A stretch of DNA of 37,873 nucleotides from a virus, in the IMG/VR virus record IMGVR_UViG_3300023504_000019, positions 1 through 37,873 of that record; one strand, given 5' to 3'. Below are positions 6,440 through 23,650 of this stretch, piece by piece (positions within the stretch are counted from its first letter, which is position 1; each line of letters starts with the position of its first letter). The notes beneath the pieces were generated by a model that worked only from the letters and a program-made list of their open reading frames with translations, was not told where the DNA came from and searched no databases. A program made the translations under genes and the position numbers.

Positions 6440-7080
6440 ACTGCAAAATCGGGTGGATAGATTACTAATCACTATAAACACGTGATTCTCAGACGCTTAC
6501 AAAAAAGGTGATAGGTAGTGATTTTTTACTATCACCTGTAACTCACTGATTCACTGCTATTTACAGAAAATGGATAGATCGATAGGAAAATCTCAAAGAG
6601 TATATCAGAAAAACACGGTTTGCGATGTTCAATTAACATAATCGAATTAACACAATTCATCAACACACCGTTTTTTTTCTTGTAATAGCAAATACCCCAT
6701 TTTTACCTATTTTCCTATCATCCCTATCATAACTAACTAATAATCAGTAACTTACAATGATAGATATATAAATAGGCATCTATCTTTAAATATGTTAACT
6801 ACCTTGAAATGAGCAAGTTACAATGATTGGTAAAAAATCACTACCTATCCATTTTCTCCTACTTGGTTTGTATCTTACTGTATTTCAATCACTTATGAAG
6901 CTACTAGGGGACTCCCGTTTTCCCTGCCTTCCTATCTATATGGACCCTCGAAAACTACCGTTTTTAATGTTATGTAAATATTCTCGCTTCCGTATTTTCG
7001 CCTCACAGCACCTTTGTATCCAAACTATTCAAAACTAATCAAAAAGACGCAATGAAAAATTCGGACCCTAGATAGGGGTG
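6440..7080. repeat. Iteron-rich non-coding module A (GATAG-core repeats around an AT-rich spacer)
   Basis: GGATAGAT at 6455-6462 and 6572-6579. GATAGG at 6581-6586 and 7071-7076. GATAGAT at 6759-6765. Reverse copies CCTATC at 6714-6719 and 6723-6728, ATCTATCT at 6778-6785, CCTATCC at 6844-6850, CCTATCTAT at 6931-6939. Perfect dyad AGGTGATAG (6506-6514) / CTATCACCT (6529-6537). No credible ORF on either strand. Confidence 0.8.
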
Positions 7081-7228
7081 AAAAACTGTTCTTCCATTTT
7101 TTGGCAAAAATAGGGTGATTCAAAGGTTTTGCCTCGCTACTGTAAACATTTATACAGGCTAATTTCGGAAACGTTTTATCACACATTTCTCTACTTTGCA
7201 CAAAACACTACCGTCTCCCGAAAATAAG

Positions 7229-7269
7229 AAACGAGGACCCTCGGCAATCACACCGAAAAGTCCTCGTTT
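7229..7269 (-). terminator. Rho-independent-type terminator ending the early arc
   Basis: 10-bp stem AAACGAGGAC (7229-7238) / GTCCTCGTTT (7260-7269) with inner TCGG/CCGA pairing. On the minus strand it is followed by CTTATTTTCGG. It lies 26 nt downstream of the last early CDS. Confidence 0.6.
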
Positions 7270-7294
7270 GACACTATGAAATTAAGAAAAGGTT

Positions 7295-7909
7295 TTACAA
7301 CATTATTGCATATTTCTCGCAAATGTGGTTTAGAAAGCTATTTTTCAGCAGTGAATTCGTTTCCCCTTCCAAGAATACCCATGATGATCCGTCCCATTCG
7401 AAGATAGAAACGCCACCATTTGCGTAGTGCCGGACCTCATAGATCGGCGGCATCTCTCCGGCTTCCGGTTGTTCCCGACCTATCCGGATGAGGCGTTTGG
7501 TACGGGATTCCTTCGCTGCTAGCTTTTCTTCGAATTGCGCCGCTTCATATCGGGTGGTGGATAGACAGCCGTTCACCATCTTCTTTCTCTCCTCGCTTAC
7601 CGATAACGGGCTACGGCGTTCAAACAGGTTACGGCAAAACTCTTGGAACTCGATCCGGTTATCCTCGATAACGTGTGCCGGGCAAAGGTAACGAGGCGAC
7701 CCTTTTTTCATTGGGTCTAGCTCCGGCTTGTATCCCATCTGTCTCATGAACTGCATAAAGACGAACGCCCGCACATTAAAGATTCTAGCGACTTGCCTAA
7801 CATCTACACACCTAGTAGAAGGGCTATTAGCAATACGAACGCTGCACCCGCAACTAGTCCCACGGCGATCGCCGCAATTATCGAAAGTATGATTGATTTC
7901 ATTTTTCAT
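7295..7909 (-). CDS. Hypothetical early protein (204 aa from MKNEINHTF), last gene of the early arc
   Basis: Track ORF 7295..7984. The ATG at 7909 lies 2 nt after the upstream stop, so the longer form would overlap the preceding gene by 73 nt. Cys-rich N-terminus (CGDRRGTSCGCS). No family recognised. Confidence 0.55.
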   Translation of the reverse strand: MKNEINHTFDNCGDRRGTSCGCSVRIANSPSTRCVDVRQVARIFNVRAFVFMQFMRQMGYKPELDPMKKGSPRYLCPAHVIEDNRIEFQEFCRNLFERRSPLSVSEERKKMVNGCLSTTRYEAAQFEEKLAAKESRTKRLIRIGREQPEAGEMPPIYEVRHYANGGVSIFEWDGSSWVFLEGETNSLLKNSFLNHICEKYAIML

Positions 7910-7911
7910 TG

Positions 7912-8574
7912 TTATCTTGGATTTAAAAACATTAATGTTAGTAGTGTACCGATCGCGAATCCGGCGACCGCTACTCCCCACCATACACGACTGGTTCGTT
8001 CTCTGAAGGATTCATATTCCTCTTTCAAGTCTTTTAATCCGGTTCGTAGCCTGTTATTCTCGATTGATAAGTCCGCCATTTTAATTTGCGCCGCCTCTTC
8101 CGCCTTATCTCTCCGGTAATCTTTGTAACAGTCGGGACAAAGCTTATACGGCTCGCATCCGTACTTCCCGGGTACCCTTGTTATCAAGGAAGGGTGTACC
8201 GCTTTCCCGCAACATGAACATTTACCCCTCAACGCCTCATGCGTTCCGTTGGCAAACTTAATCGCCGCCTCCGTTATCCGGCTTGCCTTCCGTTTCGCCT
8301 CGGTTTCTGCACGCACCTTAGTTTCTATGCTCGCCTCGATCTCCTTCCTTGGCTTATCCTTAAATTCCGTCATTGACTCGTACTTTGCTTTTGGCAAGCC
8401 CTCCACGCTAATCACCTTCTCCTTGTTTTCCTTTAGCTTCCGTTCCGCATTATCATGGATAAAAGACTGAGCGGCGATCCCCATGCACCGGTGACACAGG
8501 CACATGCCATAGTTGAACATGAATAAATTAGCTATCTTGGTTTCTCCGCACACGGCGCAACTTGGTCCCATCAT
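7912..8574 (-). CDS. Tail-anchored membrane protein with two CxxC...CxxC zinc ribbons and a coiled coil (220 aa)
   Basis: CAVCGE...CLCHRC and CSCCGK...CPDCY motifs. Charged helical middle region. C-terminal hydrophobic segment WWGVAVAGFAIGTLLTLMFL. Confidence 0.55.
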   Translation of the reverse strand: MMGPSCAVCGETKIANLFMFNYGMCLCHRCMGIAAQSFIHDNAERKLKENKEKVISVEGLPKAKYESMTEFKDKPRKEIEASIETKVRAETEAKRKASRITEAAIKFANGTHEALRGKCSCCGKAVHPSLITRVPGKYGCEPYKLCPDCYKDYRRDKAEEAAQIKMADLSIENNRLRTGLKDLKEEYESFRERTSRVWWGVAVAGFAIGTLLTLMFLNPR

Positions 8575-8768
8575 CGCTTGCCTCCTTTCTTCATATCTGA
8601 GATAGCACCCGCCATAGATCGGAGTCCGTACAATGCTCGTTTCAGCATATTATCTTTAAACTTTTGGTCTTTCTCAGCCCAACATTCGCCGCAAAACGAA
8701 CCTATCGGGGTGGCGTAGCGGGGACCGCCGTCTGCTATTACTTTCCCGCATTCAACACATTTAATCAT
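8571..8768 (-). CDS. Small zinc-ribbon protein (65 aa)
   Basis: CVECGK-x18-CGECW. Same CxxCG[KE]...CxxC[WYM] pattern as both ribbons of the downstream 220-aa protein. ATGA overlaps on both sides. Confidence 0.55.
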   Translation of the reverse strand: MIKCVECGKVIADGGPRYATPIGSFCGECWAEKDQKFKDNMLKRALYGLRSMAGAISDMKKGGKR

Positions 8769-9250
8769 TTTCTTCGTTGTTTATTGGTTATACTTAAAAT
8801 CTCGTTCGCTAGTAACCTAGCCTCTAACACTGACATCTCAACTAATGGTAAGCCGGATGGTCCTTTCTTTATCTTCACCTTGTCACCATCAATGTAGGCG
8901 TGCGCCCACTTGGTTCTGATCTCGTGCATCCGCTCCTTCATCTTCCGGGTAGCTTCCTCGGCACGCTCCACCCAGTTATCGAAGGTAGAGGCGGGTCGGC
9001 TACTCTCCAATTCTTTGAACTCCTTATCTAGCTCGGATAACTTGTGGATAGAGTGCTCGTAAGAAATTTCCCCATCCTCGTACTCCTTGACTATCTTCCG
9101 TTGCCGGGCTTCGTAATCATCTACTGACTGACCTTCGTATTCTCGGTTTAGATCGGCTAGCTTGGATTGCATATCGGGAAAGTCTATTCTCCAGTCACGG
9201 TAAGCGCTTAATATAGCCTTCCGCCTATCATCATATTCTTGGTACGTCAT
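8765..9250 (-). CDS. Hypothetical charged helical protein (161 aa from MTYQEYDD)
   Basis: Track ORF 8765..9364. The internal ATG at 9250 makes an ATGA overlap with the stop of ORF 9247..9495, which removes a 118-nt overlap. Confidence 0.5.
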   Translation of the reverse strand: MTYQEYDDRRKAILSAYRDWRIDFPDMQSKLADLNREYEGQSVDDYEARQRKIVKEYEDGEISYEHSIHKLSELDKEFKELESSRPASTFDNWVERAEEATRKMKERMHEIRTKWAHAYIDGDKVKIKKGPSGLPLVEMSVLEARLLANEILSITNKQRRK

Positions 9251-9495
9251 AACCACAGCCAATCTAAGTTGAACATATTCTTTAATAACATCCGGATCAT
9301 CAGACCGAACCACGCTCCGGCTCCGGTCAGCCAAAAGTCTATCCAGTCCCATTTGCCACCCCATTGGCTATCCTTGAATTCCATCCCTGCGGCTGCTCCA
9401 CAGGTGAATGCGAATCCGGCAACTAAGGATACTAGGAAGCCGTACACTAGGTGCTTCCACCGATTCGACTGTTTAAACCAATTCAATATTTTCAT
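9247..9495 (-). CDS. Small integral membrane protein, two predicted TM segments (82 aa)
   Basis: Hydrophobic stretches LVYGFLVSLVAGFAFTCGAAAG and WIDFWLTGAGAWFGLMI. Trp-rich loop GGKWDWIDFW. Confidence 0.5.
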   Translation of the reverse strand: MKILNWFKQSNRWKHLVYGFLVSLVAGFAFTCGAAAGMEFKDSQWGGKWDWIDFWLTGAGAWFGLMIRMLLKNMFNLDWLWL

Positions 9496-9868
9496 CTTTC
9501 AATTCCTCCATTACTGCTTTAAAGTTTTTAATAATCTTCGATAATCTTTCGGCGTCTTTCTCTAGGATGCCCAAAACATAACGCCTACCTTGTCTCTTCC
9601 TTTGCCTCGCCGCCCATTCCTTTTTCTCGTTCGGTGTGAGATACTCATAGGTATCTAGGAACGGACGCAACCTCTCGATCGTTTTCTCTCTCAGTTCCTC
9701 ATAGAACTGTTTCCTTACATACTTGGTTAGCCTGTTATCGGATTCTTTTGGGAAGAGAATTGATTCGGGGTATTCCATCAGCATGTCGAACTTAATCTCA
9801 TCCTCCGCCTCCTTCCATTCGTTCGGGAACCAAGTAGTTAGGAATCTTTCGGCTATCTTTCCTTTCAT
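9473..9868 (-). CDS. Hypothetical early protein (131 aa)
   Basis: ATG at 9868 with an ATGA overlap to the upstream gene. Charged, helical composition. No motif recognised. Confidence 0.5.
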   Translation of the reverse strand: MKGKIAERFLTTWFPNEWKEAEDEIKFDMLMEYPESILFPKESDNRLTKYVRKQFYEELREKTIERLRPFLDTYEYLTPNEKKEWAARQRKRQGRRYVLGILEKDAERLSKIIKNFKAVMEELKDENIELV

Positions 9869-10098
9869 GGCGTCACCAGTTCAAAGTGAACATCTTTCCC
9901 GTCATCCCGTTTGTCTCCGGAACATTCGAAGTGAATGCAACCTTTTCCGTACTTCATCCGGTGATTCTTACTCAGCAGGGGACAGCCTTCACACATGCTT
10001 ATCCATTCGAACGCCGGGTCCTCTCTGCAAACTATTTCCGTACCATCGTCTAGCTTAAACGTTTCGTCTACGGGAACTTGGATGTATCTTGTTTTCAT
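9865..10098 (-). CDS. Small Cys4 protein (77 aa from MKTRYIQ), tandem paralogue of 10101..10307
   Basis: Shared pattern V-x-C-x-ED...C-x2-C...C...C...RDD-x2-DVHF-x2-V with the adjacent ORF. The ATG at 10098 lies 2 nt after the upstream stop; the track start at 10158 would overlap. Confidence 0.5.
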   Translation of the reverse strand: MKTRYIQVPVDETFKLDDGTEIVCREDPAFEWISMCEGCPLLSKNHRMKYGKGCIHFECSGDKRDDGKDVHFELVTP

Positions 10099-10100
10099 GG

Positions 10101-10307
10101 TTAATCTACTTTTATAAAATGAACGTCTCTCATATCGTCTCTCTCGTGTGACGCACAACTTATGGTATTACATCTTAGTGATCCGTGGAAGGCGCAAGAT
10201 TCGCATTGGTCATCCCGTCTAGTATCATCTTCCACACATTGTACTCTCTTCCCTATGTACTCGAATACTTCGTCTAGTTCCGGGTGAATCTTAGTTTTTA
10301 CTTTCAT
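10101..10307 (-). CDS. Small Cys4 protein (68 aa), tandem paralogue of 9865..10098
   Basis: VQCVEDD...CESC...C...C...ERDDMRDVHFIKV aligns with the neighbouring ORF. Confidence 0.5.
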   Translation of the reverse strand: MKVKTKIHPELDEVFEYIGKRVQCVEDDTRRDDQCESCAFHGSLRCNTISCASHERDDMRDVHFIKVD

Positions 10308-10309
10308 GG

Positions 10310-10723
10310 CTACTCACTTATTGCTTTCAACATCTTCTTTAACTCACCCTTGCTTACCATGATGGAGGACGCGAACATTTGCGTTATTCCGATCTCCCAT
10401 CCTCCCATCATTGCACCCATGTTCCGGGCGATGTTATCAGAAGGATTATTCAAAGGTACGGTTTCCTTTCCGGAGTAATCAAGCATTGACTGAATGATGG
10501 CGACCGCTTGTTCCTTAGTTCCTAGCGATACAGTCATTATCGTGGTGACGTCCTGTTTGACTAGTCCTTTGATCTCGAAGGTATCAGCTACCTTGTACAA
10601 CTTGATAACGCCCATGCGATAGGAAGCTACTTGTTCCGGTTTCGGTGATTCTTTGATCTGAGCGATTGCACTTGCTGCAAAAGCAGCGATTAAAACGATA
10701 AATGCTAATGTAAACTTTTTCAC
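10310..10723 (-). CDS. Secreted or periplasmic early protein with a signal peptide (137 aa)
   Basis: N-terminus (V/M)KKFTLAFIVLIAAFAASAIAQ shows n-, h- and c-regions with an AxA-like cleavage site. The start codon is GTG. No lipobox Cys. Confidence 0.5.
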   Translation of the reverse strand: MKKFTLAFIVLIAAFAASAIAQIKESPKPEQVASYRMGVIKLYKVADTFEIKGLVKQDVTTIMTVSLGTKEQAVAIIQSMLDYSGKETVPLNNPSDNIARNMGAMMGGWEIGITQMFASSIMVSKGELKKMLKAISE

Positions 10724-10749
10724 GATTCTTTGTTTTTAAATGATTAATA

Positions 10750-11001
10750 TTATATTTCTGATCTTAATTCGTCTACTATGTTGTACCAAAATTGCCGTCC
10801 CTCCGGACAATCAAAGAATATGAATGATGCTTCTATCATATCGGATAGATACGGGTAGGTAGTTAATAACATATTTCTCCTTTGTACACAGTTTAGCTTG
10901 ACCTCCGTGGCCCGCTTATCCGTGTTGGATACCCATTTATCGAATATACCAAGCTCTTTCATCTTGGCTACTTTCTGAACTGCATTTCTATAATTTTCCA
11001 T
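10750..11001 (-). CDS. Hypothetical early protein (83 aa)
   Basis: ATG-initiated minus-strand ORF in the co-directional array. No motif recognised. Confidence 0.45.
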   Translation of the reverse strand: MENYRNAVQKVAKMKELGIFDKWVSNTDKRATEVKLNCVQRRNMLLTTYPYLSDMIEASFIFFDCPEGRQFWYNIVDELRSEI

Positions 11002-11019
11002 GATCCTGTATTTTAATAG

Positions 11020-11205
11020 TTAATATGACAATGATACAAGAGTCATTCCACCACCCTGCGACTTGATGTATCTTCTAGCTTGTTGGTAAGCTGCGTTTCG
11101 GTTCATCGCATATAGATGAAGGGTCTCTAGGTCATAGTGGCCGTTTATCATCTCTACTCTGAATGTTGTTACAAATCTCGGTTTCCATTGGTCGTTACGT
11201 CTCAT
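11020..11205 (-). CDS. Hypothetical early protein (61 aa), first gene after promoter cassette P1
   Basis: ATG at 11205, 41 nt downstream of the -7 box at 11246-11253. Confidence 0.4.
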   Translation of the reverse strand: MRRNDQWKPRFVTTFRVEMINGHYDLETLHLYAMNRNAAYQQARRYIKSQGGGMTLVSLSY

Positions 11206-11245
11206 AATCTTTATTATTTAGATTGTTATTCTTATTTCTATATGA

Positions 11246-11305
11246 CAAATGTACGGCGAAGTTTTGGTTTTGCCAAATTTTGAACAAAGTATTAACATTC
11301 ATTAG
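11246..11305 (-). promoter_or_regulatory. Promoter cassette P1 (Bacteroidota type, conserved about 65-bp unit)
   Basis: Minus strand: TTTG (11277-11274), 20 nt, TACATTTG (11253-11246). The upstream block TAATGAATGTTAATACTTTGTTCAAAATTTGGCAAA is shared with P2 and P3. Confidence 0.65.
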
Positions 11306-11313
11306 TGGACCGA

Positions 11314-11354
11314 TGTTTCACAGTAACGTCCATTAACGTTTATACTGTGAAACA
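11314..11354 (-). other. Perfect 12-bp hairpin enclosing the SNF2 stop codon
   Basis: TGTTTCACAGTA (11314-11325) and TACTGTGAAACA (11343-11354) are exact reverse complements. The loop has additional ACGT/ACGT pairing. There is no U-tract on the minus strand. Confidence 0.6.
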
Positions 11355-12736
11355 ATCTCTTTGATAGTGTCTATTAACATATTCTGTGTACCTGCTTTTT
11401 CCTGTAACCTGCTAGCTACCTTCTCGTCTATGGTGCGCTTGGCGATGATGTGATGAATGAACACGGGCTTGGTCTGTCCCTGTCTCCACAAGCGGGCGTT
11501 GAACTGCTGATACAATTCCAAATTCCAAGTAGTACCAAACCAAATGATGTTGTTACCACCCTTCTGTAAATTCAGCCCGTGACCCACTGAGGCGGGATGA
11601 GCGATGAGGACCTTTATCTTTCCGGCGTTCCAGTCCTTTATGACGGTCGTGGCGTCTGCTTTCGAATCACCACCGATCCGGACAGGCTTTAGCTTGGCTA
11701 GTGCTTTCATGATACGTTCAGCCTCGTGAATGAAGTTGTAAGCGATAAGCACTGGCGACCCGTTCAACGCCTCTACCATCTCCACAAGCATCTCGATCTT
11801 GGCGTCCCCCACCTTTATGATCTTCCGGTCTGCATCATACAGAGCACCGCTTGCGAACTGCTGTAACTTGCTCGACAGAGCGGCGGCGGACATAGCGGTT
11901 ATCTCCTTCTCATCTCCCATTTCATCGAACATGGCTAGTACCTGCTCACTCTCGAATTCCTTGTACGCTGCATACTCGCTGTCAGACAATGCCACCCTGT
12001 CATACAGGTAACTTACTTCCGGCATATCCAAGTAGTCTACGGCTTTCATCGAAAGGGTGATGTCGGCGATACGCTCGGACAATTCCGTTTCGGTGTTTTC
12101 CCGCGGCTTATAGTTATAGACGATGCCACCATTTTGCGCGCCGGGCTTAAAGTAGTTAGCCCGGTAATCGGTGATAGACTTGCCTAGCCGCTTGCCTCCA
12201 TCTATGACGAACATTTGCGCCCAAAGGTCTATCAAACCATTAGGAGCGGGCGTTCCGGTTAGCCCGATGATCCGGGTAGCGAATCGGCGTATCTTCTTCA
12301 TAGCTTTAAAGCGTTCCGACTGGTGGTTCTTGAATGACGATAGCTCATCGATCACGATGCAGTCGAAAGGGACCTTAACGCCTCCGAAGTGTTCCAACAA
12401 CCAAACAAGGTTATCACGTCCGATGGTGTACACGTCCGCATCAGCATGCGCCGCCGCTATCCGCTTCTTCTGTGTCCCGGCAATGACAGATATACGAAGG
12501 TTGTGAAGGTGGGACCAGTTCGTTATCTCATCAGCCCACGTCACCTCGGCGACGCGTTTAGGCGCAACGATAAGTACCTTAGTCACTTCGAAGTATTCTA
12601 TCATATCGGAGATAGCGGTCAGAGTGGTAACCGTTTTCCCTAGTCCCATGTCAAGGAATAGAGCGCATTCGGGATTATCCTTGATATGCTCTACTCCTTG
12701 CACTTGGTATTTATGCAGTTGGTTTCTATTCAACAT
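11333..12736 (-). CDS. SNF2/Rad54-family (SF2) helicase/translocase (467 aa)
   Basis: Motif I DMGLGKT, motif II VIDELSSF, motif III LTGTPAPNGLIDLWAQ, motif VI QQFNARLWRQGQTKPV. Confidence 0.85.
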   Translation of the reverse strand: MLNRNQLHKYQVQGVEHIKDNPECALFLDMGLGKTVTTLTAISDMIEYFEVTKVLIVAPKRVAEVTWADEITNWSHLHNLRISVIAGTQKKRIAAAHADADVYTIGRDNLVWLLEHFGGVKVPFDCIVIDELSSFKNHQSERFKAMKKIRRFATRIIGLTGTPAPNGLIDLWAQMFVIDGGKRLGKSITDYRANYFKPGAQNGGIVYNYKPRENTETELSERIADITLSMKAVDYLDMPEVSYLYDRVALSDSEYAAYKEFESEQVLAMFDEMGDEKEITAMSAAALSSKLQQFASGALYDADRKIIKVGDAKIEMLVEMVEALNGSPVLIAYNFIHEAERIMKALAKLKPVRIGGDSKADATTVIKDWNAGKIKVLIAHPASVGHGLNLQKGGNNIIWFGTTWNLELYQQFNARLWRQGQTKPVFIHHIIAKRTIDEKVASRLQEKAGTQNMLIDTIKEIVSQYKR

Positions 12737-13028
12737 CTTCTAGGTCATTAATATCAACGTACCAATAACTTGTCAACGGGTCAGCGTCTAGGATCATCCG
12801 GTCATATAAACCTTGCTTATCTTCGGGGGACCACCCACGGTTATTCATCGGAAGGGTATCGGGCAATTCCACTATGATGGAAGGAGCACCTAGCCCGTCT
12901 TGCTTGGTGTACCCGGCTATGGTTACGGCCTCGCCTTCGAACATGCCTTTCTTGATAACGAATTTCTTTGCTAGGTTCGTGTCTACGAAGTCCTGCACAT
13001 CTTTTAATAATTCATCATAATATTTCAT
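12726..13028 (-). CDS. Hypothetical early protein (100 aa)
   Basis: ATG-initiated ORF overlapping both neighbours by a few nt. No motif recognised. Confidence 0.45.
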   Translation of the reverse strand: MKYYDELLKDVQDFVDTNLAKKFVIKKGMFEGEAVTIAGYTKQDGLGAPSIIVELPDTLPMNNRGWSPEDKQGLYDRMILDADPLTSYWYVDINDLEDVE

Positions 13029-13459
13029 AATCCAATGCTTTTTGTATAAAGTTCATCTAATAAATCGTCTAGCGTCCACCGTTCCGGAAACAGCTTGATA
13101 AGTGCTTCCACCGTTTCGAGAAGGTCCGGTCTTACGCAATCAGTTCCTAACAAGTCGGCTACGGTGTGTAGCTTGTTATTCTTGTAAACCTCAGACCGAA
13201 ATGTTTCTTTCAGTTCGTCTGCCGACTGGACCATCGCCGCACCTTCCAAGTCACCCAAGTTCCGGCGGGAATACTCAGCCCGGAGGACCTTATCGGGAAC
13301 CTCTGATAACAAGAACTGTTTAATGTTATCCGGTAACCGTCCCACGGCCTCACCGATCATGTAACCGTCCGCTGGGGTGTTGTTCGCCATCTTTGTTACG
13401 TTATCCACGAACAAGGCTATCCGGTCCTCCTTTAGTTTCTTTCTAAAATCTACCGCCAT
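13025..13459 (-). CDS. Hypothetical early protein (144 aa)
   Basis: ATG-initiated ORF with an ATGA overlap downstream. No motif recognised. Confidence 0.45.
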   Translation of the reverse strand: MAVDFRKKLKEDRIALFVDNVTKMANNTPADGYMIGEAVGRLPDNIKQFLLSEVPDKVLRAEYSRRNLGDLEGAAMVQSADELKETFRSEVYKNNKLHTVADLLGTDCVRPDLLETVEALIKLFPERWTLDDLLDELYTKSIGL

Positions 13460-13463
13460 AATC

Positions 13464-14774: not shown

Positions 14775-14789
14775 ATCCTTTGATTTTGT

Positions 14790-14805: not shown

Positions 14806-14814
14806 GGTTAATGA

Positions 14815-15012: not shown

Positions 15013-15015
15013 ATC

Positions 15016-15458: not shown

Positions 15459-17819
15459 CTATCTCCGCACAAACATTGTTTGCTTACCGTACAGTTTTAC
15501 GTTTCTCTGCTTGTCGGGTTTAAATCCCGCCCGTTTCAGCATGTTCGCTACCTGTTTAGCCCTTGCCACGTTGAAGTCGGTACGCTTGTTTCCTAAGCAT
15601 TCCACCCATATTTCGAAGGCACAAAAGCTGTCCCGTATCTCGGTTCCCTCCGGTTGCAATCCCACTCCGTTAACGAAATCCAAACGGTCGGCTACATACA
15701 TATCCTCCCAATTGGCGGGGAACTTGCGGTTAACGTATTCGAATACCAAACCTTCTTGCGGGTCCTTCTCGGTAAATTCTTCACGTTTACCGTTAGCTAT
15801 CTCCTCGGCTTCCGGTGACAGGATAAGACTTTCGCCGGCTTTATACAATTCTACCGCTTCCGCCCAAAGTTGGTCCACGATAACTTGAAATTCCGCTTTC
15901 CGTTTCGGATTCAGAAATATATCAGATGCCGGAACACGTCTCACAGGGACCGGAAAGAATCGGCGGCTTCCCGTGGGGTCCTTAAGGAAATCATCATTGT
16001 TGGTGGACCCAAAGAAAACACATTGCCGTCTGTGTGTCTTAACTCGCATCGCATATGCCGCCCTATAGGTATCCTCCGTTTTAGAGATGAAATTCTTCAT
16101 CGTCTCTATGTCGGTTTTCTTTAGGGCTGACAGTTCGGCAAGCTCCACAAGCCAAGACTTTTGTAGGGCTTCATAGGCTTTCGTGCCCTCCATCGAAACA
16201 AGCGAGTCGTTAAACCAACCGTTCGCAAGTTTCTGTATAAGAGTTGACTTACCTACGCCCTGCTCTGATACCATGATGAACGCCGTATCAAACTTTGTTC
16301 CCGGTTCGAAGATGCGGGCAACCGCCGCCACGAGCATTTTACGGAATGCCTCTGCCGTGTAAATGTTCTGTTCGGCACCCATGTAATCGTGCATGAACGT
16401 GTCTATTCTTGGAATAAAATCCCATTCCAAACCATTCAAATAGTCTTTAATCGGGTGGAAAGAATTCTCCAAAGCCAGTACTTCGATCACGTCGTTTAAC
16501 CTGTCTTTCGCATACAGGCGGTGAAGGCGTTCGATTCTACATTTGATAACAGCTACCCCGGTATCGTCCAGTACGTCACCTTTTACTTTCGTCTTGTCAA
16601 AGTACGGTGTGCGGGTATAAACCACCACGTCACGGAAAAGGTCATAAGCAAGTAACTTGTTCAATAACGGGTCAGACTTAAAGGCGTTGATAAAGTTAAC
16701 CGTCGTATTGGTCTTGTTACCTTTTGAGTCAAGGTCCCATTCGATTTCCGTTTCTTCCTCTGTCTCTGCAATGGCTTCGTCCGGAATTTCCTCGAAATCG
16801 CCTAGATAATCCTCTACGGCGGTTAGTTCCTTAACGACTTCCGAATCCTCATGTACTAGCTGATTCATTGCCGTCTCGCTCTCCTTCTTCCCCAAATGTC
16901 CGAACAAGTGAACACGTACCAAGTCATAAGCGTTGTATGTGTGTCCGTCTCCGATGGGGTCAGTTGAATGGTGGGAATAAGCGAATTTATCTTCATACAC
17001 TACCATTCCGGCGGCGGATGTTCCACCCTTGTATGTGTATCGGTCGTTACCGCATTCCTCGTAAACATCGGACAGATATTTTTCTATCGCTCCCTGTATG
17101 GTGTAAACGCGACAGAACGCACCGATTAATCCGGTCTTGGTTGTGGGGTCGGCTGATTCTTTGATGAGCGTTCTTACCGTTTGCTCTTCGCTGTCAGCGA
17201 ACGCCCATAGGCGAACGTCTTGCCAAGCCTCACCGCCTCCGTACAAGTCTAGGATGTAGTCTACATCCAGTGGTTCGCCTTCTTGCTGCTCGAAATAGAA
17301 TTGTTGGTCACAGGAAATGGTAGCCCAAAACATTAAACGCTCGGCTTGGAACGTAGTCGGGTCGAATAGTTCGATCCCCATTATTTCCGCCACTTTGCGT
17401 GAACAAGCCTCGTACTCTTCCCGTGTATCTATTTCCCTATTCAAAGGGATAATAAGGCGGAATCTACGCTTGTTCGGTCTATCGGAACGTGTACCATAGA
17501 TGGCTGCGGCGCAACCGAACTTGATAGAGAAATCGAAAAAGAAATCATCGTTCCCGTAGTCAACATCCAATGTGATAAGTGATCGTGATGTTACCGAATT
17601 CTTGGTGCGGCGACCTCCGGAAAGCGTGCCACCTACGAAACCGCCCTTGTCTTTGCGGATAGCCCTTTCCGACTTTGCTAGCAAATCATATTCTCTGACG
17701 GTTTCTGTATCCACCTTCGGCGTGGAAAGGATGCCTATCAGCTCATCCCATGTGTAAGACTTCCTTTTCCAATTCGTTGAACGGGCACCACCACCGACAG
17801 AGATATTGTATTTTTCCAT
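15459..17819 (-). CDS. Bifunctional primase-polymerase / VirE (D5-like SF3) helicase (786 aa)
   Basis: C-terminal P-loop MVSEQGVGKSTLIQKL and the VirE signature FFGSTNNDDFLKDPTGSRRFFPV. The N-terminal half has PrimPol-like acidic motifs (LITLDVDYG). Confidence 0.85.
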   Translation of the reverse strand: MEKYNISVGGGARSTNWKRKSYTWDELIGILSTPKVDTETVREYDLLAKSERAIRKDKGGFVGGTLSGGRRTKNSVTSRSLITLDVDYGNDDFFFDFSIKFGCAAAIYGTRSDRPNKRRFRLIIPLNREIDTREEYEACSRKVAEIMGIELFDPTTFQAERLMFWATISCDQQFYFEQQEGEPLDVDYILDLYGGGEAWQDVRLWAFADSEEQTVRTLIKESADPTTKTGLIGAFCRVYTIQGAIEKYLSDVYEECGNDRYTYKGGTSAAGMVVYEDKFAYSHHSTDPIGDGHTYNAYDLVRVHLFGHLGKKESETAMNQLVHEDSEVVKELTAVEDYLGDFEEIPDEAIAETEEETEIEWDLDSKGNKTNTTVNFINAFKSDPLLNKLLAYDLFRDVVVYTRTPYFDKTKVKGDVLDDTGVAVIKCRIERLHRLYAKDRLNDVIEVLALENSFHPIKDYLNGLEWDFIPRIDTFMHDYMGAEQNIYTAEAFRKMLVAAVARIFEPGTKFDTAFIMVSEQGVGKSTLIQKLANGWFNDSLVSMEGTKAYEALQKSWLVELAELSALKKTDIETMKNFISKTEDTYRAAYAMRVKTHRRQCVFFGSTNNDDFLKDPTGSRRFFPVPVRRVPASDIFLNPKRKAEFQVIVDQLWAEAVELYKAGESLILSPEAEEIANGKREEFTEKDPQEGLVFEYVNRKFPANWEDMYVADRLDFVNGVGLQPEGTEIRDSFCAFEIWVECLGNKRTDFNVARAKQVANMLKRAGFKPDKQRNVKLYGKQTMFVRR

Positions 17820-17830
17820 AACTAAATTAT

Positions 17831-19843
17831 TTAATCGTCCTTTTTATAATAGTAACTTTCGAAGCCTTCGGCGTTTAAAGGTATATCGAAAACCTTTGCC
17901 CAATCCGGTAAAATGCACATCGCAATACACACATCATCGAGGCTTGGACCGCCATCCTCCAATACTTCGGCTATCAGTTCATCGTGGATGTGCCCGACAA
18001 TTCCTCCGTAGTGGGGGTCCAAAGATAATACATTTTTCAATGCGGACGCCATAAGATCACGTGAAACTGCTTGAATTAAATTTTCGGTCAGCTTTCCGCC
18101 GTATGTATCCAACTCGCACCAAGCTCCCACGGGATGCCCTTTATCGGCTGTTCCGGCGATTCCGTAGTAACATATAGCCTCTACTTCCCTTGTGTCCCCA
18201 TTGGGGTATCTGATGGTCTTTGGCTTGATTGAGGCGAACGGATAATGCAGGGAACGACCGGACGGTAAGCGAACGCCCAACGTATTAAACTGTGGAATCC
18301 AGTAAAAGGTGCAAACCTTGCGACCTGCTATTATTACAGGAACTTCCCGTTTTGCAAGGATGGCACGCTTTGCCGAATTTTCTAGGGTGCGCCATAATGC
18401 CACGATGTTGGGGGATGCGTCCCTCCATTTTAAGATAATTCCTTTAATATCCTCTTCGGGGATAGCTCCCTTTTTATCCATTATCTTGATAGCTGATACC
18501 CATCCGCCGTACCCTAGTGCTAGCTCGGTTACCTTACCCTGTTGGCGGTACGGCGAATGTTTGTCAATCTTGGATTCATCTAAACCGAACGTTCTTGCGG
18601 CTGATGTTATGTAGATATCTCCACCCCTACGGAATGTTTCGACACGCCATTCTTCATTGGCTAGACAAGCGATTACACGGGCTTCAATCGCCGAGAAGTC
18701 AGCCACCTTAAACTTGTACCCCTTGCGGGCAATGAACGCCGTACGCAACAACTGAGATAGCAAATAAGGGATGTTATCGTAGAATAACAGTAAGTCGTCT
18801 AGTTCCATGCTCTTAACAGCTTCTCGTGCCGCCTCTAGTTCTTCCACCGTTTTAAAATGGTTCTTAGCTAGGTTCTGCATTTGGACCATGCGGCCCGCCC
18901 ATCGTCCGGTACGGTTAGCTCCGTAGAATCGGAACAAGCCCTTAACGCTACCATCCCGGCAAACACAGTCGAGCATCGCACCGAACTTGGTTACGGATGT
19001 CTTGTACACGATTTTGCGTGCCTCTAGTACCTTCGTTACATCTTCGTTATCACATTCTTTGATGATACCGTCTACTGTGTCTTTGTTGATGGAATCGAAA
19101 TGTTTCCCGGTAAGTTTAAGGATGAACGCATCTATCTGCTTGGATGACTTTAGGGAAGTTATTCCGAATTCCTTCTCGATTTCGCTTTCGATCCTGTGGA
19201 TGTACTCGTCAAACAGTATTTTTGCTTTTGATGCCAAATGGATGTCTATCCGACTACCACGGTCGTTAATTTCTTGGTCAACGCCGTAGTTTATGATTTC
19301 CGCCTCCGGTATTTCGATATGGCGCAATTTGCTTTCGATCTCCCTCTCTGATAGGATATCATACTTTAAGTACTCCTTGAAAGCCTCCCATTTTTCCGGG
19401 TAATCTTCCGGGTAAATGCGTTTTCCTTTTGCTTGTGGAAGGCAAAACAGTTTGATAAGATTCAGACCAGTGTCTAATTTCCCGTCGGTTAGCTTCATCG
19501 CTTTAGACACTTTGCCTAATGATTCGGGGAATCCTGCATACAAGGACAGGGTAGCCGTACAACGGAACTTCGTAGCCGGGATGTCATAACCGTATTTACG
19601 GAGACAAAGACGTTCAAATGTGGCGTTGTGGGCATATATAAGGGTATCAGATGCTGTCACCAGTTCGAAGAACTCCGTAGTATCCTCGTACTGTGTAAGG
19701 TCGATCTCGTGGACCTCTCCATCATCAATGGCGTAACCGATAAGCAATATTTCGAAAGCGTCCGATTCGGTGTACTTGTACATGCCACCTTTTTTGATGT
19801 CTACATCGGAAAATGTTTCGAAGTCAATAAATACTTTTCTCAT
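17831..19843 (-). CDS. Family A DNA polymerase with 3'-5' exonuclease domain (670 aa); no 5'-3' exonuclease domain
   Basis: Exo I FIDFETFS. Pol motif A KVADFSAIEARVIA, motif B RQQGKVTELALGYGG, motif C GHIHDELIAEV. Confidence 0.9.
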   Translation of the reverse strand: MRKVFIDFETFSDVDIKKGGMYKYTESDAFEILLIGYAIDDGEVHEIDLTQYEDTTEFFELVTASDTLIYAHNATFERLCLRKYGYDIPATKFRCTATLSLYAGFPESLGKVSKAMKLTDGKLDTGLNLIKLFCLPQAKGKRIYPEDYPEKWEAFKEYLKYDILSEREIESKLRHIEIPEAEIINYGVDQEINDRGSRIDIHLASKAKILFDEYIHRIESEIEKEFGITSLKSSKQIDAFILKLTGKHFDSINKDTVDGIIKECDNEDVTKVLEARKIVYKTSVTKFGAMLDCVCRDGSVKGLFRFYGANRTGRWAGRMVQMQNLAKNHFKTVEELEAAREAVKSMELDDLLLFYDNIPYLLSQLLRTAFIARKGYKFKVADFSAIEARVIACLANEEWRVETFRRGGDIYITSAARTFGLDESKIDKHSPYRQQGKVTELALGYGGWVSAIKIMDKKGAIPEEDIKGIILKWRDASPNIVALWRTLENSAKRAILAKREVPVIIAGRKVCTFYWIPQFNTLGVRLPSGRSLHYPFASIKPKTIRYPNGDTREVEAICYYGIAGTADKGHPVGAWCELDTYGGKLTENLIQAVSRDLMASALKNVLSLDPHYGGIVGHIHDELIAEVLEDGGPSLDDVCIAMCILPDWAKVFDIPLNAEGFESYYYKKDD

Positions 19844-19863
19844 GATTCTTTTTTATTTTTAAT

Positions 19864-19897
19864 TAAAAAGGGTGGCGTGCTTCTACTCACACCACCC
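19864..19897 (-). terminator. Terminator/attenuator between the SSB-like gene and the polymerase
   Basis: Stem GGGTGGCGTG (19870-19879) / CACACCACCC (19888-19897) with one C/A mismatch, followed on the minus strand by TTTTTAATT. It ends about 20 nt upstream of the polymerase ATG at 19843. Confidence 0.6.
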
Positions 19898-19995
19898 TCT
19901 GCACACTTGTTACTTATTGGTTGTTAAATAATAAAATGGATTAAATAAAATGGGTGACCCTCTTTTGGTTAGGCGTGGTCTATTCCTATTTTATG

Positions 19996-20562
19996 TTATT
20001 GCAATAACGGGTCATCTCCGTCTTCCGATTCATCGTCGAAATCATCTTCCACGTTTCCGGCGCCGCCTCCGAATGCGGTATCATCTTTCACCTTCTGCAA
20101 ACCGTTCAGACCGAATGAAATTCCCTTTCCGGCGGCATTGTCATAGACATAGGCATCAATCGAGGCAACTCCCCAAGAACCGGAATAGATTTGTTCTTTC
20201 TTTGTCAACGGCTGTTTGAACTTGTCAAGTAATAGCGGCTGTCCGTCTTTTTCTTTGCGGTAAGCGGAGATCATGATATAACCGAAGTTTTCGCTATGTG
20301 CCGTATCGTCACCGTCTTTGATAGGATTCCACTTTTCTCCGGCTGCTCCGGTTGTGGGGATGTTGAATTTCGGATGCTCGGCTTTATATTCATCCTGCAA
20401 CTCCTTGATAGTGCGGTTTACTTTGGCAATCTGTCCCTTGTCAGACTTCGGAATGAGCAGTGTTACTTCGTAACGAGGATTACCACTGTTGAATGCGTCT
20501 CTTGCTTCAAATACCCGTACCCATGAAAAGCGTACATTTTTTAAAACTAATTTTTTTCCCAT
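19996..20562 (-). CDS. DUF2815-type single-stranded DNA-binding-like protein (188 aa)
   Basis: The N-terminus KLVLKNVRFSWVRVFEA and the acidic C-terminal tail (DDFDDESEDGDDPLLQ) are typical of this family. It sits in the conserved position between the DUF2800 nuclease and PolA. Confidence 0.7.
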   Translation of the reverse strand: MGKKLVLKNVRFSWVRVFEARDAFNSGNPRYEVTLLIPKSDKGQIAKVNRTIKELQDEYKAEHPKFNIPTTGAAGEKWNPIKDGDDTAHSENFGYIMISAYRKEKDGQPLLLDKFKQPLTKKEQIYSGSWGVASIDAYVYDNAAGKGISFGLNGLQKVKDDTAFGGGAGNVEDDFDDESEDGDDPLLQ

Positions 20563-20611
20563 AATCGTAAATTTTTAAATTTGTTGTTATTACTGTTTCT
20601 TTAAGACTCTG

Positions 20612-20672
20612 CAAATATATGACAAGTTTTTGATACTTCCAAATTTTGACAAAACTGTTAACGTTGATTAAC
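20612..20672 (-). promoter_or_regulatory. Promoter cassette P3 (Bacteroidota type)
   Basis: Minus strand: TTTG (20643-20640), 20 nt, TATATTTG (20619-20612). The upstream block GTTAATCAACGTTAACAGTTTTGTCAAAATTTGG overlaps the stop of the nuclease gene. Confidence 0.65.
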
Positions 20673-21840
20673 TTTCGATGTCGAAATCACTTGATACATC
20701 ATAGTCCTTACCGGGGTGACTGTCCGGGACAAGTTTAGGTGCACCGGGCTGAGACTTAACGTATTCACCCAATTTGGCGGTGAAAACCTTCTTTCCCACT
20801 AGCTTCTCTAGGTCGGTGATCCCTTTCAGACTGATGTTCAGCACTTCGTCTTCTAGGTATTCTTTTAGAAGGATGTTACGCACCTTATCGGGGTCTACTA
20901 TCTTCCGGGCTGTCCGTCCCTCAACTAGCTTGTACCCTTCCCACTTCTTTCCCCTCATAGCCTCGCTATATGCGTATTGGTTGAGAGATTCAAGCCACGA
21001 CTTATACCTATCCAGTTTACCAAGCATATCGACAATTTCCTCATCAGTCATAACCAATGTGTCGGGATGTTCTTCGAAGTCACGGGCTATCTCATCCTTT
21101 TGCGCTCGGCATGTGGCTTTCACCGGGCAAAACTGGCACCAACTTCCTACCACCTGCTTTCCCTTTCCTTCGAACGCTAGCTTGGCTTTAGGCTGCAATA
21201 TCTTCGTAGCCCATTCTAGCAGATCGGGGACCGACATTTCGATAGTATCGTAGTGGTGTAATCTAGGCTGTCCCACTGACATACGAACGTACTTGATACT
21301 TCCATTGTTGAACTTGGCAAGCGCACCAAGTGCGTACATTTTGAACTGTGGGCTTTCCGCCGGGACCTTCACCCCTTTTCCATACTTAAGGTCTATGATG
21401 TGCAAAATAGAAGAGGATAACAGTGTAACATCGGCACTACCGAACGATTCCGGTGCAAACTTAGAGATATCTAGCTTTTCCTCTAGGTGTGTTGCCACTG
21501 GTCCTCCAAGCGGTCCTTTCTGCATCTCGTAGAATTCTCCCGCCACGAAGTTAACGTATTCGCCTACCGCATCTCTCATTTCCTCTGAGAAGTACTTGTT
21601 TTTGGCTATTTCATCCGGGACGGGCATCTCGTCGCATTCGGGGTAAAACGTTCCATTTATCCAACTTTTCAGCGCATATTCAGCCAATTCGTGCGCTGTC
21701 GTGCCTTCCTCGGCGTATTCGCTTGTCTTGCTTCCGGCGGCTTCCGCTAGGCGTGCGGACGGCGTGCAATTAAGCCAACGCTCGGAGGATGAAGGGGACA
21801 AAACAGCGTGTCCCCTTTCGGAATGGTTTATGCTTGACAT
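20668..21840 (-). CDS. DUF2800-type PD-(D/E)XK (Cas4-like) nuclease (390 aa)
   Basis: N-terminal HAVLSPSSSERWLNCTPS. Catalytic-like core ILHIIDLKYGKG. C-terminal cysteine cluster CQFCPVKATC, consistent with a Cas4-type Fe-S site together with the N-terminal Cys. Confidence 0.8.
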   Translation of the reverse strand: MSSINHSERGHAVLSPSSSERWLNCTPSARLAEAAGSKTSEYAEEGTTAHELAEYALKSWINGTFYPECDEMPVPDEIAKNKYFSEEMRDAVGEYVNFVAGEFYEMQKGPLGGPVATHLEEKLDISKFAPESFGSADVTLLSSSILHIIDLKYGKGVKVPAESPQFKMYALGALAKFNNGSIKYVRMSVGQPRLHHYDTIEMSVPDLLEWATKILQPKAKLAFEGKGKQVVGSWCQFCPVKATCRAQKDEIARDFEEHPDTLVMTDEEIVDMLGKLDRYKSWLESLNQYAYSEAMRGKKWEGYKLVEGRTARKIVDPDKVRNILLKEYLEDEVLNISLKGITDLEKLVGKKVFTAKLGEYVKSQPGAPKLVPDSHPGKDYDVSSDFDIES

Positions 21841-22580
21841 ATCAATTCGTAAAAGTCGTTATAACGCTCTGATTGCAATGTCCCAAAGTTAGTCGCTCCA
21901 CATTCGGCGAATGCGTCCGCAACGGCTTGACGCTTTTTCAATCGGATTAACTCGGTCGCTTTCTCTCTCAGCATCTCGATCGTCACTTCCGGAAAATCTT
22001 CGGCGGGTGCTGCTTTTTCCGGAACTTCTTCTGCTTCCTGTGGTTCAATAGCTTGCGTCTGTGGTGCGTTCTCTTCCTCTGCTACCGTTTCTTCTTCTTT
22101 GGCCTCGGCGTTAATAGCGGACAGCAATAAGCCCCTCAATTTGGCGTTCGTATTCTTACCGGGACGTTCCGCCGGATCAATATTGAAATGCCCAGTTAGG
22201 ATGTCATAAAGCACCTGTGTAGGAACGGCTTTCATTTCTTCCTCAGACATTGCACAAACGGCGTCTACCGTGTGATAAGTCAAGTCATCTCCCGGTGCTT
22301 CCGGTGCTTCTTCCCCTTTCACCTGTGTAGCTTCCACTACCTTGTTAGCTAAAGCCGCTACCTTTTCCTCGTGGGTGATTTCTTCCTCTACCACTTCGGT
22401 GGGTGCCTTCTTGCTTTCCAAGATTATCGCTTTCCCTGTCGGTACTTCCTTCGGTGTTTCTCCAAAGGTGGGGAAACCGTTCGCTTGGTTACGTTCGTTC
22501 GCCAGTGCGAGAAGAAAATCTGAGGCACATTTCATCTCATTACCTAAACTCTGCTCGTCAATGCTAATCGTTACTTTCAT
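21828..22580 (-). CDS. Highly acidic early protein (250 aa)
   Basis: Long Glu/Pro/Ala-rich tracts (EEAPEAPGDD, AKEEETVAEEENAPQTQAIEPQEAEEVPEKAAPAED). Third gene of the first early transcription unit. No family recognised. Confidence 0.5.
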   Translation of the reverse strand: MKVTISIDEQSLGNEMKCASDFLLALANERNQANGFPTFGETPKEVPTGKAIILESKKAPTEVVEEEITHEEKVAALANKVVEATQVKGEEAPEAPGDDLTYHTVDAVCAMSEEEMKAVPTQVLYDILTGHFNIDPAERPGKNTNAKLRGLLLSAINAEAKEEETVAEEENAPQTQAIEPQEAEEVPEKAAPAEDFPEVTIEMLREKATELIRLKKRQAVADAFAECGATNFGTLQSERYNDFYELICQA

Positions 22581-22582
22581 GA

Positions 22583-22768
22583 TTACTGTTTTTTAAATGT
22601 TAAATATTTGTTAGTTATCTCGTTCTCGTCTACGCGAATCTTCCCCTGTTGGTTCTTATACTCGCTTAAATGACCTTGCCTAATTTTGTACCGGATGGCA
22701 TTTTCCGTTAGCCCTATCATATGGGCTGCTTCGCTGATTCTAATCAACTTTGGTTTTACTTCTTCCAT
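22583..22768 (-). CDS. Small helix-turn-helix DNA-binding protein, MerR/excisionase-like (61 aa)
   Basis: LIRISEAAHMIGLTENAIRYKIRQGHL fits the HTH_17/Xis-type motif. Confidence 0.6.
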   Translation of the reverse strand: MEEVKPKLIRISEAAHMIGLTENAIRYKIRQGHLSEYKNQQGKIRVDENEITNKYLTFKKQ

Positions 22769-22770
22769 TT

Positions 22771-23076
22771 TTAAAAATTCTTAGATTTGTGAAACGTACT
22801 CAAAAAATCTTTGTAAGCCATCTCCACCGCTCCGGCGTAAACCGAACGATACTTGTTAGCTGTCGGATAGATGAACGCACGAATTTTAAATTCAAACTTT
22901 TCTCCGCCGTCCTCCCTCGCTAGCTTTTCACGAAATAACTCTTCGGTCGTTAGCCGAAACGGTGAACTGAACTTGTTATATACGTCTGTGGCTTTTAATT
23001 GCGTGTTGATGTGCAACCAAGCCTCGTCATAATAAAATTTCTCTAGCTTGCAAAGATTAACTCTCTCTTTTCTCAT
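22771..23076 (-). CDS. Hypothetical first early protein (101 aa from MRKERVNL)
   Basis: Track ORF 22771..23094 begins at a TTG. The first ATG is at 23076. Confidence 0.45.
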   Translation of the reverse strand: MRKERVNLCKLEKFYYDEAWLHINTQLKATDVYNKFSSPFRLTTEELFREKLAREDGGEKFEFKIRAFIYPTANKYRSVYAGAVEMAYKDFLSTFHKSKNF

Positions 23077-23174
23077 AACTTGATTGTTTTGCAAATGACC
23101 CGTGAACGCTCGTATCGTTACTTTTGTGTCACCTCGGAGTGTTGATGACCCGTTTCATTTGTAATTCGATGCTG

Positions 23175-23235
23175 CAAAGATACTGCTTTTATTTGAATCT
23201 GCAACAATTTGGGCAAAAGAAATCGTATCATTAAC
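23175..23235 (-). promoter_or_regulatory. Promoter cassette P4 (diverged copy), first early promoter
   Basis: The -7 box TATCTTTG (23182-23175) is exact. The -33 region is only near-consensus (ATTG/TTGT). The upstream block GTTAATGATACGATTTCTTTTGCCCAAATTGTTGCAGA aligns with P1-P3. Confidence 0.5.
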
Positions 23236-23259
23236 TTTTCTTAGCTATTCGGGGTGATT

Positions 23260-23650
23260 TTGAGGCGTGGATAGATAACTATCCGTTTAAAGCCTATGAT
23301 TACTAGCGAGTTACGTAATGGGTGGATAGATTAAAAAGTCTTAAAATCATTGTAACTTGCTGCAAATCAGTGATTTATGGAAAAGTGGATAGATTGCTGC
23401 AAACTTCTCAAGAGTATAACGTAAAAGTGTGTATGTTGATTGATAAATTATCTACACAAGCTAAAAATACACACTATAAAAGTTTTCTCATATATACATG
23501 GAAATTACCTATCACATCTATCCATATTAGTATAAATGCCTTAAGATTAGTGAGTTACGAGGATAGGTGAAAAAGTGTTTCCTATCTGTATAAATGTTAA
23601 ATCCCTGCAAATCAATGACTTACAGGGATAGATTTATGGATAGGTTAATT
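23260..23650. repeat. Iteron-rich non-coding module B, paralogous to module A
   Basis: GGATAGAT at 23269-23276, 23324-23331, 23387-23394 and 23626-23633. GGATAGG at 23561-23567 and 23638-23644. Reverse copies CTATCC at 23279-23284, CCTATC at 23508-23513 and 23581-23586, ATCTATCC at 23516-23523. Palindrome GGATAG-ataa-CTATCC at 23269-23284. Confidence 0.8.

Follow-up and report, generated by a model that had tools for sequence, protein, structure and literature searches.

Paired iteron modules at the early/late gene borders of a Bacteroides siphophage genome, probably replication origins of the Rep type

Two non-coding gaps, here called modules A and B, divide the genes of the IMG/VR virus record IMGVR_UViG_3300023504_000019 into an early and a late arc. 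The whole stretch of 37,873 nucleotides was analysed (positions 1 to 37,873 of that record, hereafter the window). A and B are genuine diverged paralogues, in each of which short repeated boxes (iterons) flank an AT-rich centre, and they are probably two replication origins of the Rep type, or else one origin and one origin-like partner. This reading is suggested by the homology of a primase-helicase encoded in the early arc to Rep1 of the staphylococcal pathogenicity island SaPI1, by a module anatomy that matches the published definition of a SaPI origin (ori), and by the location of the two least stable segments of the genome in A and B. A first-pass annotation, made from the letters of the window, had offered three explanations for the pair, namely two origins, sites from which one DNA-binding protein coordinates the early/late switch, or substrates for recombination; of these, origins fit best, with their firing predicted from the SaPI-like anatomy and the Rep1 homologue.

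Paralogy and anatomy of the modules

The window is a circular genome of a Bacteroides siphophage of the ARB25/BT12 group. A DNA search returned 56 matching records, Bacteroides siphophages of the ARB25/SJC/HNL/BT group, with BT12, BT16, BT19, and BT23 as the nearest matches (~89% identity). The first 55 nt are repeated exactly and in direct orientation as the last 55 nt (window 1-55 and 37819-37873), which marks the overlap of a circular assembly, and the real genome is thus a circle of 37,818 bp. All long open reading frames (ORFs) of the window lie on the minus strand; "upstream" hence means higher window coordinates, a point on which the first-pass annotation has to be corrected, and the box read in gene sense is ATCTATCC, with the core CTATC.

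In either module the annotation had pointed to GGATAGAT followed, after 11 nt, by a second motif (GGATAGAT-N11-TCTCAA(A)GAGTATA; 6572-6604 and 23387-23418) and, further on, to TTACCTAT...CTATC blocks (6703-6728 and 23505-23523). All quoted strings were located where they had been reported, with the spacer of 11 nt in both modules; of the two additional motifs, one proved to mark the promoter-side edge of the centre and the other to consist of the innermost distal boxes. GGATAGAT occurs ten times against 1.19 expected, a count that none of 100 shuffles reached, and although the gaps A and B together account for 4.1% of the genome, seven of these ten copies fall within them (binomial P = 2e-8). 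The likeness extends past the short motif, as the best local alignment (Smith-Waterman) between A and B covers 160 nt in direct orientation (6453-6612 vs. 23267-23426) at 76% identity, and its score of 50 lies far above those of dinucleotide shuffles (22.7 +/- 2.2, maximum 30 among 300 shuffles). A second match is inverted, the unit thus being present in reverse as well inside B.

Each module holds ten GATAG-core boxes in two arrays that flank a centre, 112 nt long in B and 125 nt in A, and the paralogous core with GGATAG(AT) boxes that is shared by the gaps 6330-7294 and 23095-23678 is ~400 nt long (Table 1). Seven boxes are colinear and identical in orientation, with B-minus-A offsets of 16,794 to 16,815, i.e., 16,814, 16,815, and 16,815 on one side (A proximal boxes 6455, 6509, and 6572) and 16,794, 16,794, 16,803, and 16,802 on the other (A distal boxes 6713, 6722, 6758, and 6778; box 6843 is not colinear). 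Together, the alignment score and the seven colinear boxes bear out the earlier description of A and B as diverged direct-repeat paralogues of the same polarity that bracket the arcs. The GGATAGAT copies of the promoter-proximal array of B are spaced by 55-63 nt.

A SaPI ori consists of 6-12 iterons about an AT-rich centre, with at least two iterons per side in opposite directions (PMC9371898). In this phage, ten boxes per module surround centres of ~70% A+T (~71% for B vs. 54% genome-wide, and ~70% for 6580-6757, which includes the A centre). At least two boxes per side are opposed in both modules, the outer boxes being mixed: the innermost boxes of B face away from the centre (23324(+) and 23387(+) vs. 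23507(-) and 23516(-)), and those of A are likewise opposed (6572(+) and 6580(+) vs. 6713(-) and 6722(-)). By nearest-neighbour stability, the least stable 100-bp segment of the genome is 6701-6801, which overlaps the distal edge of the A centre and the distal array, and the second least stable is 23438-23538 in B.

The primase-helicase as candidate initiator

The candidate reader of the boxes is a 786-aa fused primase and Rep-type helicase, hereafter PriRep. It matches the structure of SaPI1 Rep1 bound to DNA (PDB 7PDS) with E = 2e-103 in a profile search (residues 371-781) and E = 3e-70 as a single sequence, and the Pfam VapE-like family with E = 2e-75, which places it among the Rep-family helicases (VapE / DUF5906, SF3-like). 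In the AlphaFold2 model of aa 641-786, confidence is high for the C-terminal ~95 residues (predicted local distance difference test, pLDDT, of 85-96 in 10-residue blocks, mostly > 90), the topology of the modelled C-terminus is beta-beta-alpha-alpha-beta-beta, and its sole significant PDB match is 7pds_A (E = 9.6e-5, probability 1.0, TM 0.60). Judged from this model, the C-terminus appears winged-helix-like, as would be expected of an iteron-reading domain; the same ~95 aa diverge faster than the remainder of the protein. SaPI Reps are self-loading initiator-helicases in which a winged helix of the C-terminal domain recognises iterons of 5-6 nt, and in SaPI5 a primase is fused to Rep (PMC9371898). 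Pfam and PHROG scans of the early arc returned an exonuclease, a protein that binds single-stranded DNA (SSB), PolA, the VapE primase-helicase, and an SNF2 helicase, and no binder of the gp38 type (phage SPP1) with a separate loader and a DnaB-type helicase.

We propose that PriRep would bind the iterons of A and B via its C-terminal winged-helix domain, melt the AT-rich centre, and load itself, and that replication would begin at both places where early and late gene blocks meet. Another possibility is that one copy fires while the other acts as an auxiliary or fork-arrest site, like the proposal for SPP1 oriR. As both copies would have to match one protein, their iterons would change together between lineages, and gene conversion between A and B would help to maintain their likeness. 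A more elaborate variant appears distinctly unlikely, namely that A and B form a coupled pair in which initiators pair or loop the DNA, or one copy is a programmed fork barrier, the replication of the two arcs being timed differently and tied to the early-to-late switch, with gene conversion keeping the copies matched; if true, this would be a replication-coupled genome-partitioning switch, undescribed for tailed phages.

Conservation and concerted change across relatives

In BF1-8, ARB25, BT12, BT709P1, and SJC10 both modules are found in the same places, with the same box and a similar box pattern, and the A-B alignment is significant in all five. The same positions are occupied by both modules in eight GenBank relatives and in 13 of the 13 IMG/VR loci of the ~36-38-kb lineage that are long enough to include both gaps. 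In the more distant syntenic phages BKO1-1, BC679P2, and BD26P1 and in those 13 loci, A and B are paralogous in each case, the primase-helicase being 41-67% identical. Relatives with only one module would have counted against the first-pass annotation; every checkable syntenic relative retains both.

The box differs between lineages, the variants being ATCTATCC (the group of this phage), ATC[TA]ATGC, ATCTGTGAC, ATCTTT(T)ACA, ATCTTTCACA, ATCTGTTA, CGGAACA (in tandem, with an 11-nt period), and GAGAAACAA. Within any one genome, A and B carry the same variant, and the copies of a variant are almost all located in the non-coding modules of the genomes that bear it (e.g., 8 of 8, 15 of 18, and 9 of 9 copies). 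Identity between A and B inside a genome ranges from 76% over 160 nt in this phage to 98% over 283 nt in BD26P1, from which concerted evolution follows, and the pattern in these sequences indicates that the two copies are homogenised by gene conversion. The observation is thus stronger than the first-pass annotation could know, being family-wide and with copies that evolve in concert. Since the box differs by lineage, is common to A and B, and the hosts all belong to Bacteroides/Phocaeicola, the shared reader should be phage-encoded and not a conserved host factor, and the suggestion that one protein acts at both sites gains indirect support from this concerted change.

Host-factor sites, e.g., DnaA-box-like sequences (GTGGATAG vs. 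TGTGGATAA) that recruit host replication or nucleoid proteins, are accordingly an extremely improbable explanation of the boxes: the extended box ATCTATCCAC does match the consensus DnaA box TTATCCACA at 8 of 9 positions, but the box changes completely among phage lineages of the same host genus, and the DnaA-box idea was rejected on this ground. The only exact DnaA box in the window lies at 30411, and none is present in A or B.

The degree of identity between the copies also bears on recombination, resolution, or partition sites, i.e., repeats at which the arcs would be separated or reordered, or centromere-like elements serving a carrier state. That the modules are direct repeats, that the 283 nt shared in BD26P1 include an exact run of 218 nt, and that the phage proteins include an exonuclease and an SSB of the single-strand annealing type would all suit such a role, but no integrase, resolvase, ParA, or ParB was found in the annotation of relatives or in the Pfam and PHROG scans, and the longest exact match between A and B in this genome is 14 nt. 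Moreover, a crossover between A and B would delete an essential arc, which makes it likelier a cost than a function. We regard this explanation as highly improbable, and recombination between the modules as a side effect at most. As a separate observation, the 218-nt exact direct repeat of BD26P1 (locus L007; gene-sense 5443-5954 and 23028-23766) is of a length that would allow homologous recombination to be frequent, and such events would split that genome into two circles.

A group of relatives with genomes of 45-55 kb has the same type of module upstream of the early genes, with AAACAAT iterons around an AT-rich centre. On a 51-kb contig of this group (IMGVR_UViG_3300045988_125318; loci L124 and L159) a second iteron cluster is located elsewhere, and the genes beside this second cluster in L124 gave no functional assignment except an HNH endonuclease.

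Gene arcs, promoters, and the regulatory alternative

Gene order was derived from annotated relatives together with Pfam and PHROG scans, and on this basis the arc contents assigned in the first-pass annotation are correct. In gene sense, the early side leads from gap B through genes for a 107-aa protein, a 61-aa protein with a helix-turn-helix of the HTH_17 family (22583-22768, second gene of the early operon), a DUF2800 PD-(D/E)XK exonuclease, an Enc34-type SSB, PolA, the 786-aa VapE-type primase-helicase, small ORFs, an SNF2 helicase, and further small ORFs to gap A; the late side leads from gap A through terS, terL, tail genes, tape measure, capsid, portal, and amidase to gap B. The early arc (7295-23094) measures 15.8 kb and the late arc, once the 55-nt overlap is subtracted, 20.5 kb, in agreement with the earlier figures. 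Each module indeed follows the end of one arc and precedes the first promoter of the next, B standing before the early/replication operon and A before terS and the late genes.

Promoters were searched on the coding strand with the Bacteroides-type motif TTTG-N20-TAnnTTTG, used in place of the sigma-70 consensus, for which matches were at or below shuffle expectation. The block of the early promoter is almost invariant among relatives (alignment columns 480-535), and the TACCTTTG element of the late promoter lies at 6358, 29 nt ahead of the terS start. Three internal promoters carry no boxes. These (~20612-20665, 15221-15274, and 11246-11299, minus strand) share a longer upstream block, TTTGTTCAAAATTTGG ... 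TAnATTTG, and the ~100-nt regions around 15228 and 11253 form the strongest repeat pair of the genome, as they do in L009, L042, and SJC10; they resemble a "middle promoter" cassette that is repeated and has no iterons. In both modules, many lineages have a TATAG(A/G)GAA-like element immediately ahead of the first promoter-side iteron (at the same position in L001, L006, L007, L018, and L034). This phage and BT12 carry the variant TATACTCT(T)TGAGA (23405-23418 and 6591-6604), which is the second motif of the first-pass annotation.

With each module directly upstream of the first promoter of an arc, the boxes could also be operator or enhancer arrays through which a phage transcription factor, e.g., the HTH_17 protein, possibly with the 107-aa protein, sets the early-to-late switch upstream of the early and terS promoters. 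The HTH gene is the second of the early operon, its helix region combines an invariant core (TENAIRY) with lineage-specific residues after it, much as the box combines an ATCTnT core with a variable suffix, and one lineage has the HTH ORF and the first early ORF joined into one. However, operator arrays would be expected to abut or overlap the promoter core in a fixed geometry, and the boxes span about -94 to -460 from the promoter, the iteron nearest to the -7 element lying at 94, 104, 149, 156, 167, or 180 nt depending on module and relative. Such distances, variable even among close relatives, are a poor geometry for a promoter-proximal regulator. The lack of boxes at the internal promoters argues in the same direction, and an AT-rich centre between opposed arrays is the anatomy of an origin, not of an operator. 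The HTH_17 protein is encoded in most, not all, loci of the ATCTnT lineages, and hmmsearch (E <= 10) detected no homologue of it in BD26P1, in L083, or in the 45-55-kb group, although each of these carries iteron modules; an unrelated regulator could substitute there. Operator arrays are therefore unlikely as the primary function, and of the first-pass suggestion that one protein coordinates the early/late switch from both sites, the switch is the part that the box distances speak against.

The fusion of the 107-aa and HTH_17 proteins into a single ORF is a feature of the ATC[TA]ATGC lineage (L013, L016, and L045; corresponding to window 22583-23094) and hints at a joint action of both proteins. 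A full ATCTATCC box also lies inside the gene of the 107-aa protein (window 22865-22872), at the same place in all five GenBank relatives of the ATCTATCC lineage that were inspected, and may reflect mere coding conservation or an extra binding site.

Weighing of the origin reading

Several observations weigh against A and B as Rep-type origins. The modules are not placed next to the rep gene: there are no boxes in the gap that follows it (14324-15458), the distance from rep is 5.3 kb for the upstream module (B) and 8.2 kb for the downstream one (A), and iterons directly downstream of rep were found neither in this phage nor in the 42%-identity group. Iteron orientations are mixed inside each array. 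The B centre is conserved in sequence, beyond its composition, across relatives that are ~72% identical overall (23395-23506, alignment A1 columns 200-300), which exceeds what a purely compositional unwinding element would need. GC skew and cumulative skew show no shift at A or B; with all genes on one strand and a monotonic profile, the skew is uninformative for origins. Covariation of proteins with the box, analysed in 35 genomes or loci, singled out no binder and yielded no informative recombinant, as every conserved protein tracks its lineage, and the N-terminus of terS diverges fast just as the C-terminus of PriRep does. The primase-helicase is present in all the loci in which the HTH_17 protein was not detected, but it was the query with which the collection was made, so its presence is no independent test. 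Finally, both modules lie upstream of major promoters, which is consistent with a regulatory role, and the modules may have a regulatory side-function, such as autoregulation of the early operon or a coupling of late transcription to replication.

Packaging and other features

Module A contains an element that B lacks, the GC-rich 21-mer GACCTAGCGATTCACGGCCCC. Wherever it was detected there is one copy per genome, which invariably lies in the interval from the last iteron to terS. It reads in sense in the ATCTATCC lineage, and genomes of the ATC[TA]ATGC lineage (L012, L014, and L045) have it inverted. We propose it as a candidate packaging or other terS-linked site. The iterons themselves could be packaging sites bound by TerS oligomers, with A as pac and B as a second pac or a decoy. 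The pac site of phage P1 also has repeats that flank a central region, A adjoins terS, and the terS N-terminus diverges fast between box lineages. The family appears to use headful packaging (10.1101/2020.03.04.977157). Nevertheless, B has the same anatomy although it heads the replication operon, 17-20 kb away from terS, the 21-mer beside terS suits the role of a packaging signal better than the shared iterons do, and the Rep1 homologue explains iterons directly, by family. Packaging is thus a very unlikely function of the boxes.

The upstream 440 nt of gap A are variable, with a terminator-like hairpin at their start. A conserved ORF is present in neither gap. An opposite-strand ORF of 71 aa in A (6823-7038, plus strand), annotated in ARB25 (ARB25_44) and BF1-8 (BF1-8_gp39), was rejected as a gene, its protein not being conserved; it is truncated in BT12, absent in BT709P1, and the sole opposite-strand coding sequence annotated among the GenBank relatives, and probably represents a false gene prediction. 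Over the whole window, Rfam and tRNA scans gave zero matches.

Table 1 Coordinates (window positions) of modules A and B, their parts, and associated genes and signals
Feature	Position	Strand	Details
Module A, non-coding gap between last early gene and terS	6330..7294	-	conservation and paralogy to B limited to the ~450 nt nearest terS
A promoter-proximal iteron array	6452..6587		boxes 6455(+), 6509(+), 6527(-), 6572(+), 6580(+)
A AT-rich centre	6588..6712		TCTCAAAGAGTATA at promoter-side edge
A distal iteron array	6713..6850		boxes 6713(-), 6722(-), 6758(+), 6778(-), 6843(-)
Module B, non-coding gap between late/lysis gene end and first early gene	23095..23678	-	no conserved ORF; six relatives align at 80% mean column identity
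B promoter-proximal iteron array	23266..23394		GGATAGAT at 23269, 23324, 23387 (+); inverted copy 23277
B AT-rich centre, candidate DNA-unwinding element	23395..23506		TCTCAAGAGTATA motif of the first-pass annotation at promoter-side edge
B distal iteron array	23507..23645		boxes 23507(-), 23516(-), 23561(+), 23580(-), 23626(+), 23638(+)
PriRep, 786-aa fused primase / Rep-type helicase, proposed iteron-binding initiator	15459..17819	-	Pfam VapE-like, DUF5906; PDB 7PDS match
Early promoter, Bacteroides type	23175..23215	-	-7 element TATCTTTG at 23182-23175; motif scan
terS (late) promoter, TTTG-N20-TACCTTTG	6351..6382	-	motif scan; conserved in alignment A2
terS, first gene of the late arc	5694..6329	-	PHROG 606 terminase small subunit; weak Pfam GP3_package match; annotated terS in BT12 and BF1-8
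GC-rich 21-mer GACCTAGCGATTCACGGCCCC	6414..6434	-	unique to A, absent from B
Terminator-like hairpin and U-tract, end of early arc	7220..7268	-	RNA fold -26.8 kcal/mol, z = -3.2

Significance and comparison with known systems

A literature search found no account of origins, control regions, or intergenic repeats in Bacteroides siphophages. Few phages of Bacteroides, a dominant gut genus, have been cultured; the ARB25-like siphophages belong to these few, and ~80% of the ARB25-like genes are without an assigned function. Candidate origins together with a candidate initiator would provide handles for engineering, e.g., minimal replicons or origin-based Bacteroides plasmids, and lineage-specific iterons would be a natural system in which to follow the co-evolution of initiator and origin specificity.

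The closest likeness in parts is to the Rep origins of SaPIs and other phage-inducible chromosomal islands (SaPI1 Rep1, PDB 7PDS; SaPI5 PriRep5). The helicase core is homologous, a C-terminal winged-helix-like domain is predicted in this phage too, the fused primase-Rep architecture is that of SaPI5, and short iterons, 6-12 in number, stand opposed on both sides of an AT-rich centre, so by analogy the modules may work mechanistically like SaPI Rep origins. In contrast to the single ori directly downstream of rep in a staphylococcal island, there are two copies here, away from rep, at the early/late borders and beside the main promoters of a lytic Bacteroides siphophage, and the boxes are 8 nt long with a core of 5-6 nt. 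Because a single copy adjacent to rep is lacking, the modules are not simply filed as a SaPI-type ori.

The satellite phage P4 has two separate loci with octamer iterons, ori and crr, which are both needed in cis, and its alpha protein is a fused primase-helicase with a C-terminal DNA-binding domain. P4 resembles this phage by the combination of iterons at two loci with a fused primase-helicase, and is in this respect a precedent for the layout; crr consists of two direct repeats of ~120 bp that lack the anatomy of the origin, whereas A and B share one anatomy.

The remark in the first-pass annotation that no described system has this layout is too strong, as a precedent exists in oriL and oriR of SPP1, which are similarly organised and both bind gp38, and of which oriR was proposed to arrest forks and to set off the theta-to-sigma switch that leads to concatemer synthesis (PMC6316719). 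Both phages have two separated, similarly organised regions with repeats and an AT-rich unwinding element, kilobases apart on a circular map; one phage initiator at both regions and fork stalling by the second copy would be further shared traits, which for this phage are proposed by analogy. In SPP1, gp38 works with a separate loader and a DnaB-type helicase, whereas the candidate here is a self-loading primase-helicase; oriL lies inside gene 38, while both modules of this phage are intergenic; and the SPP1 origins do not symmetrically bracket early and late blocks. A duplicated, gene-converted origin at the early/late borders would make this the second dual-origin tailed phage besides SPP1, and such a second case would make the purpose of a second origin testable in a new host.

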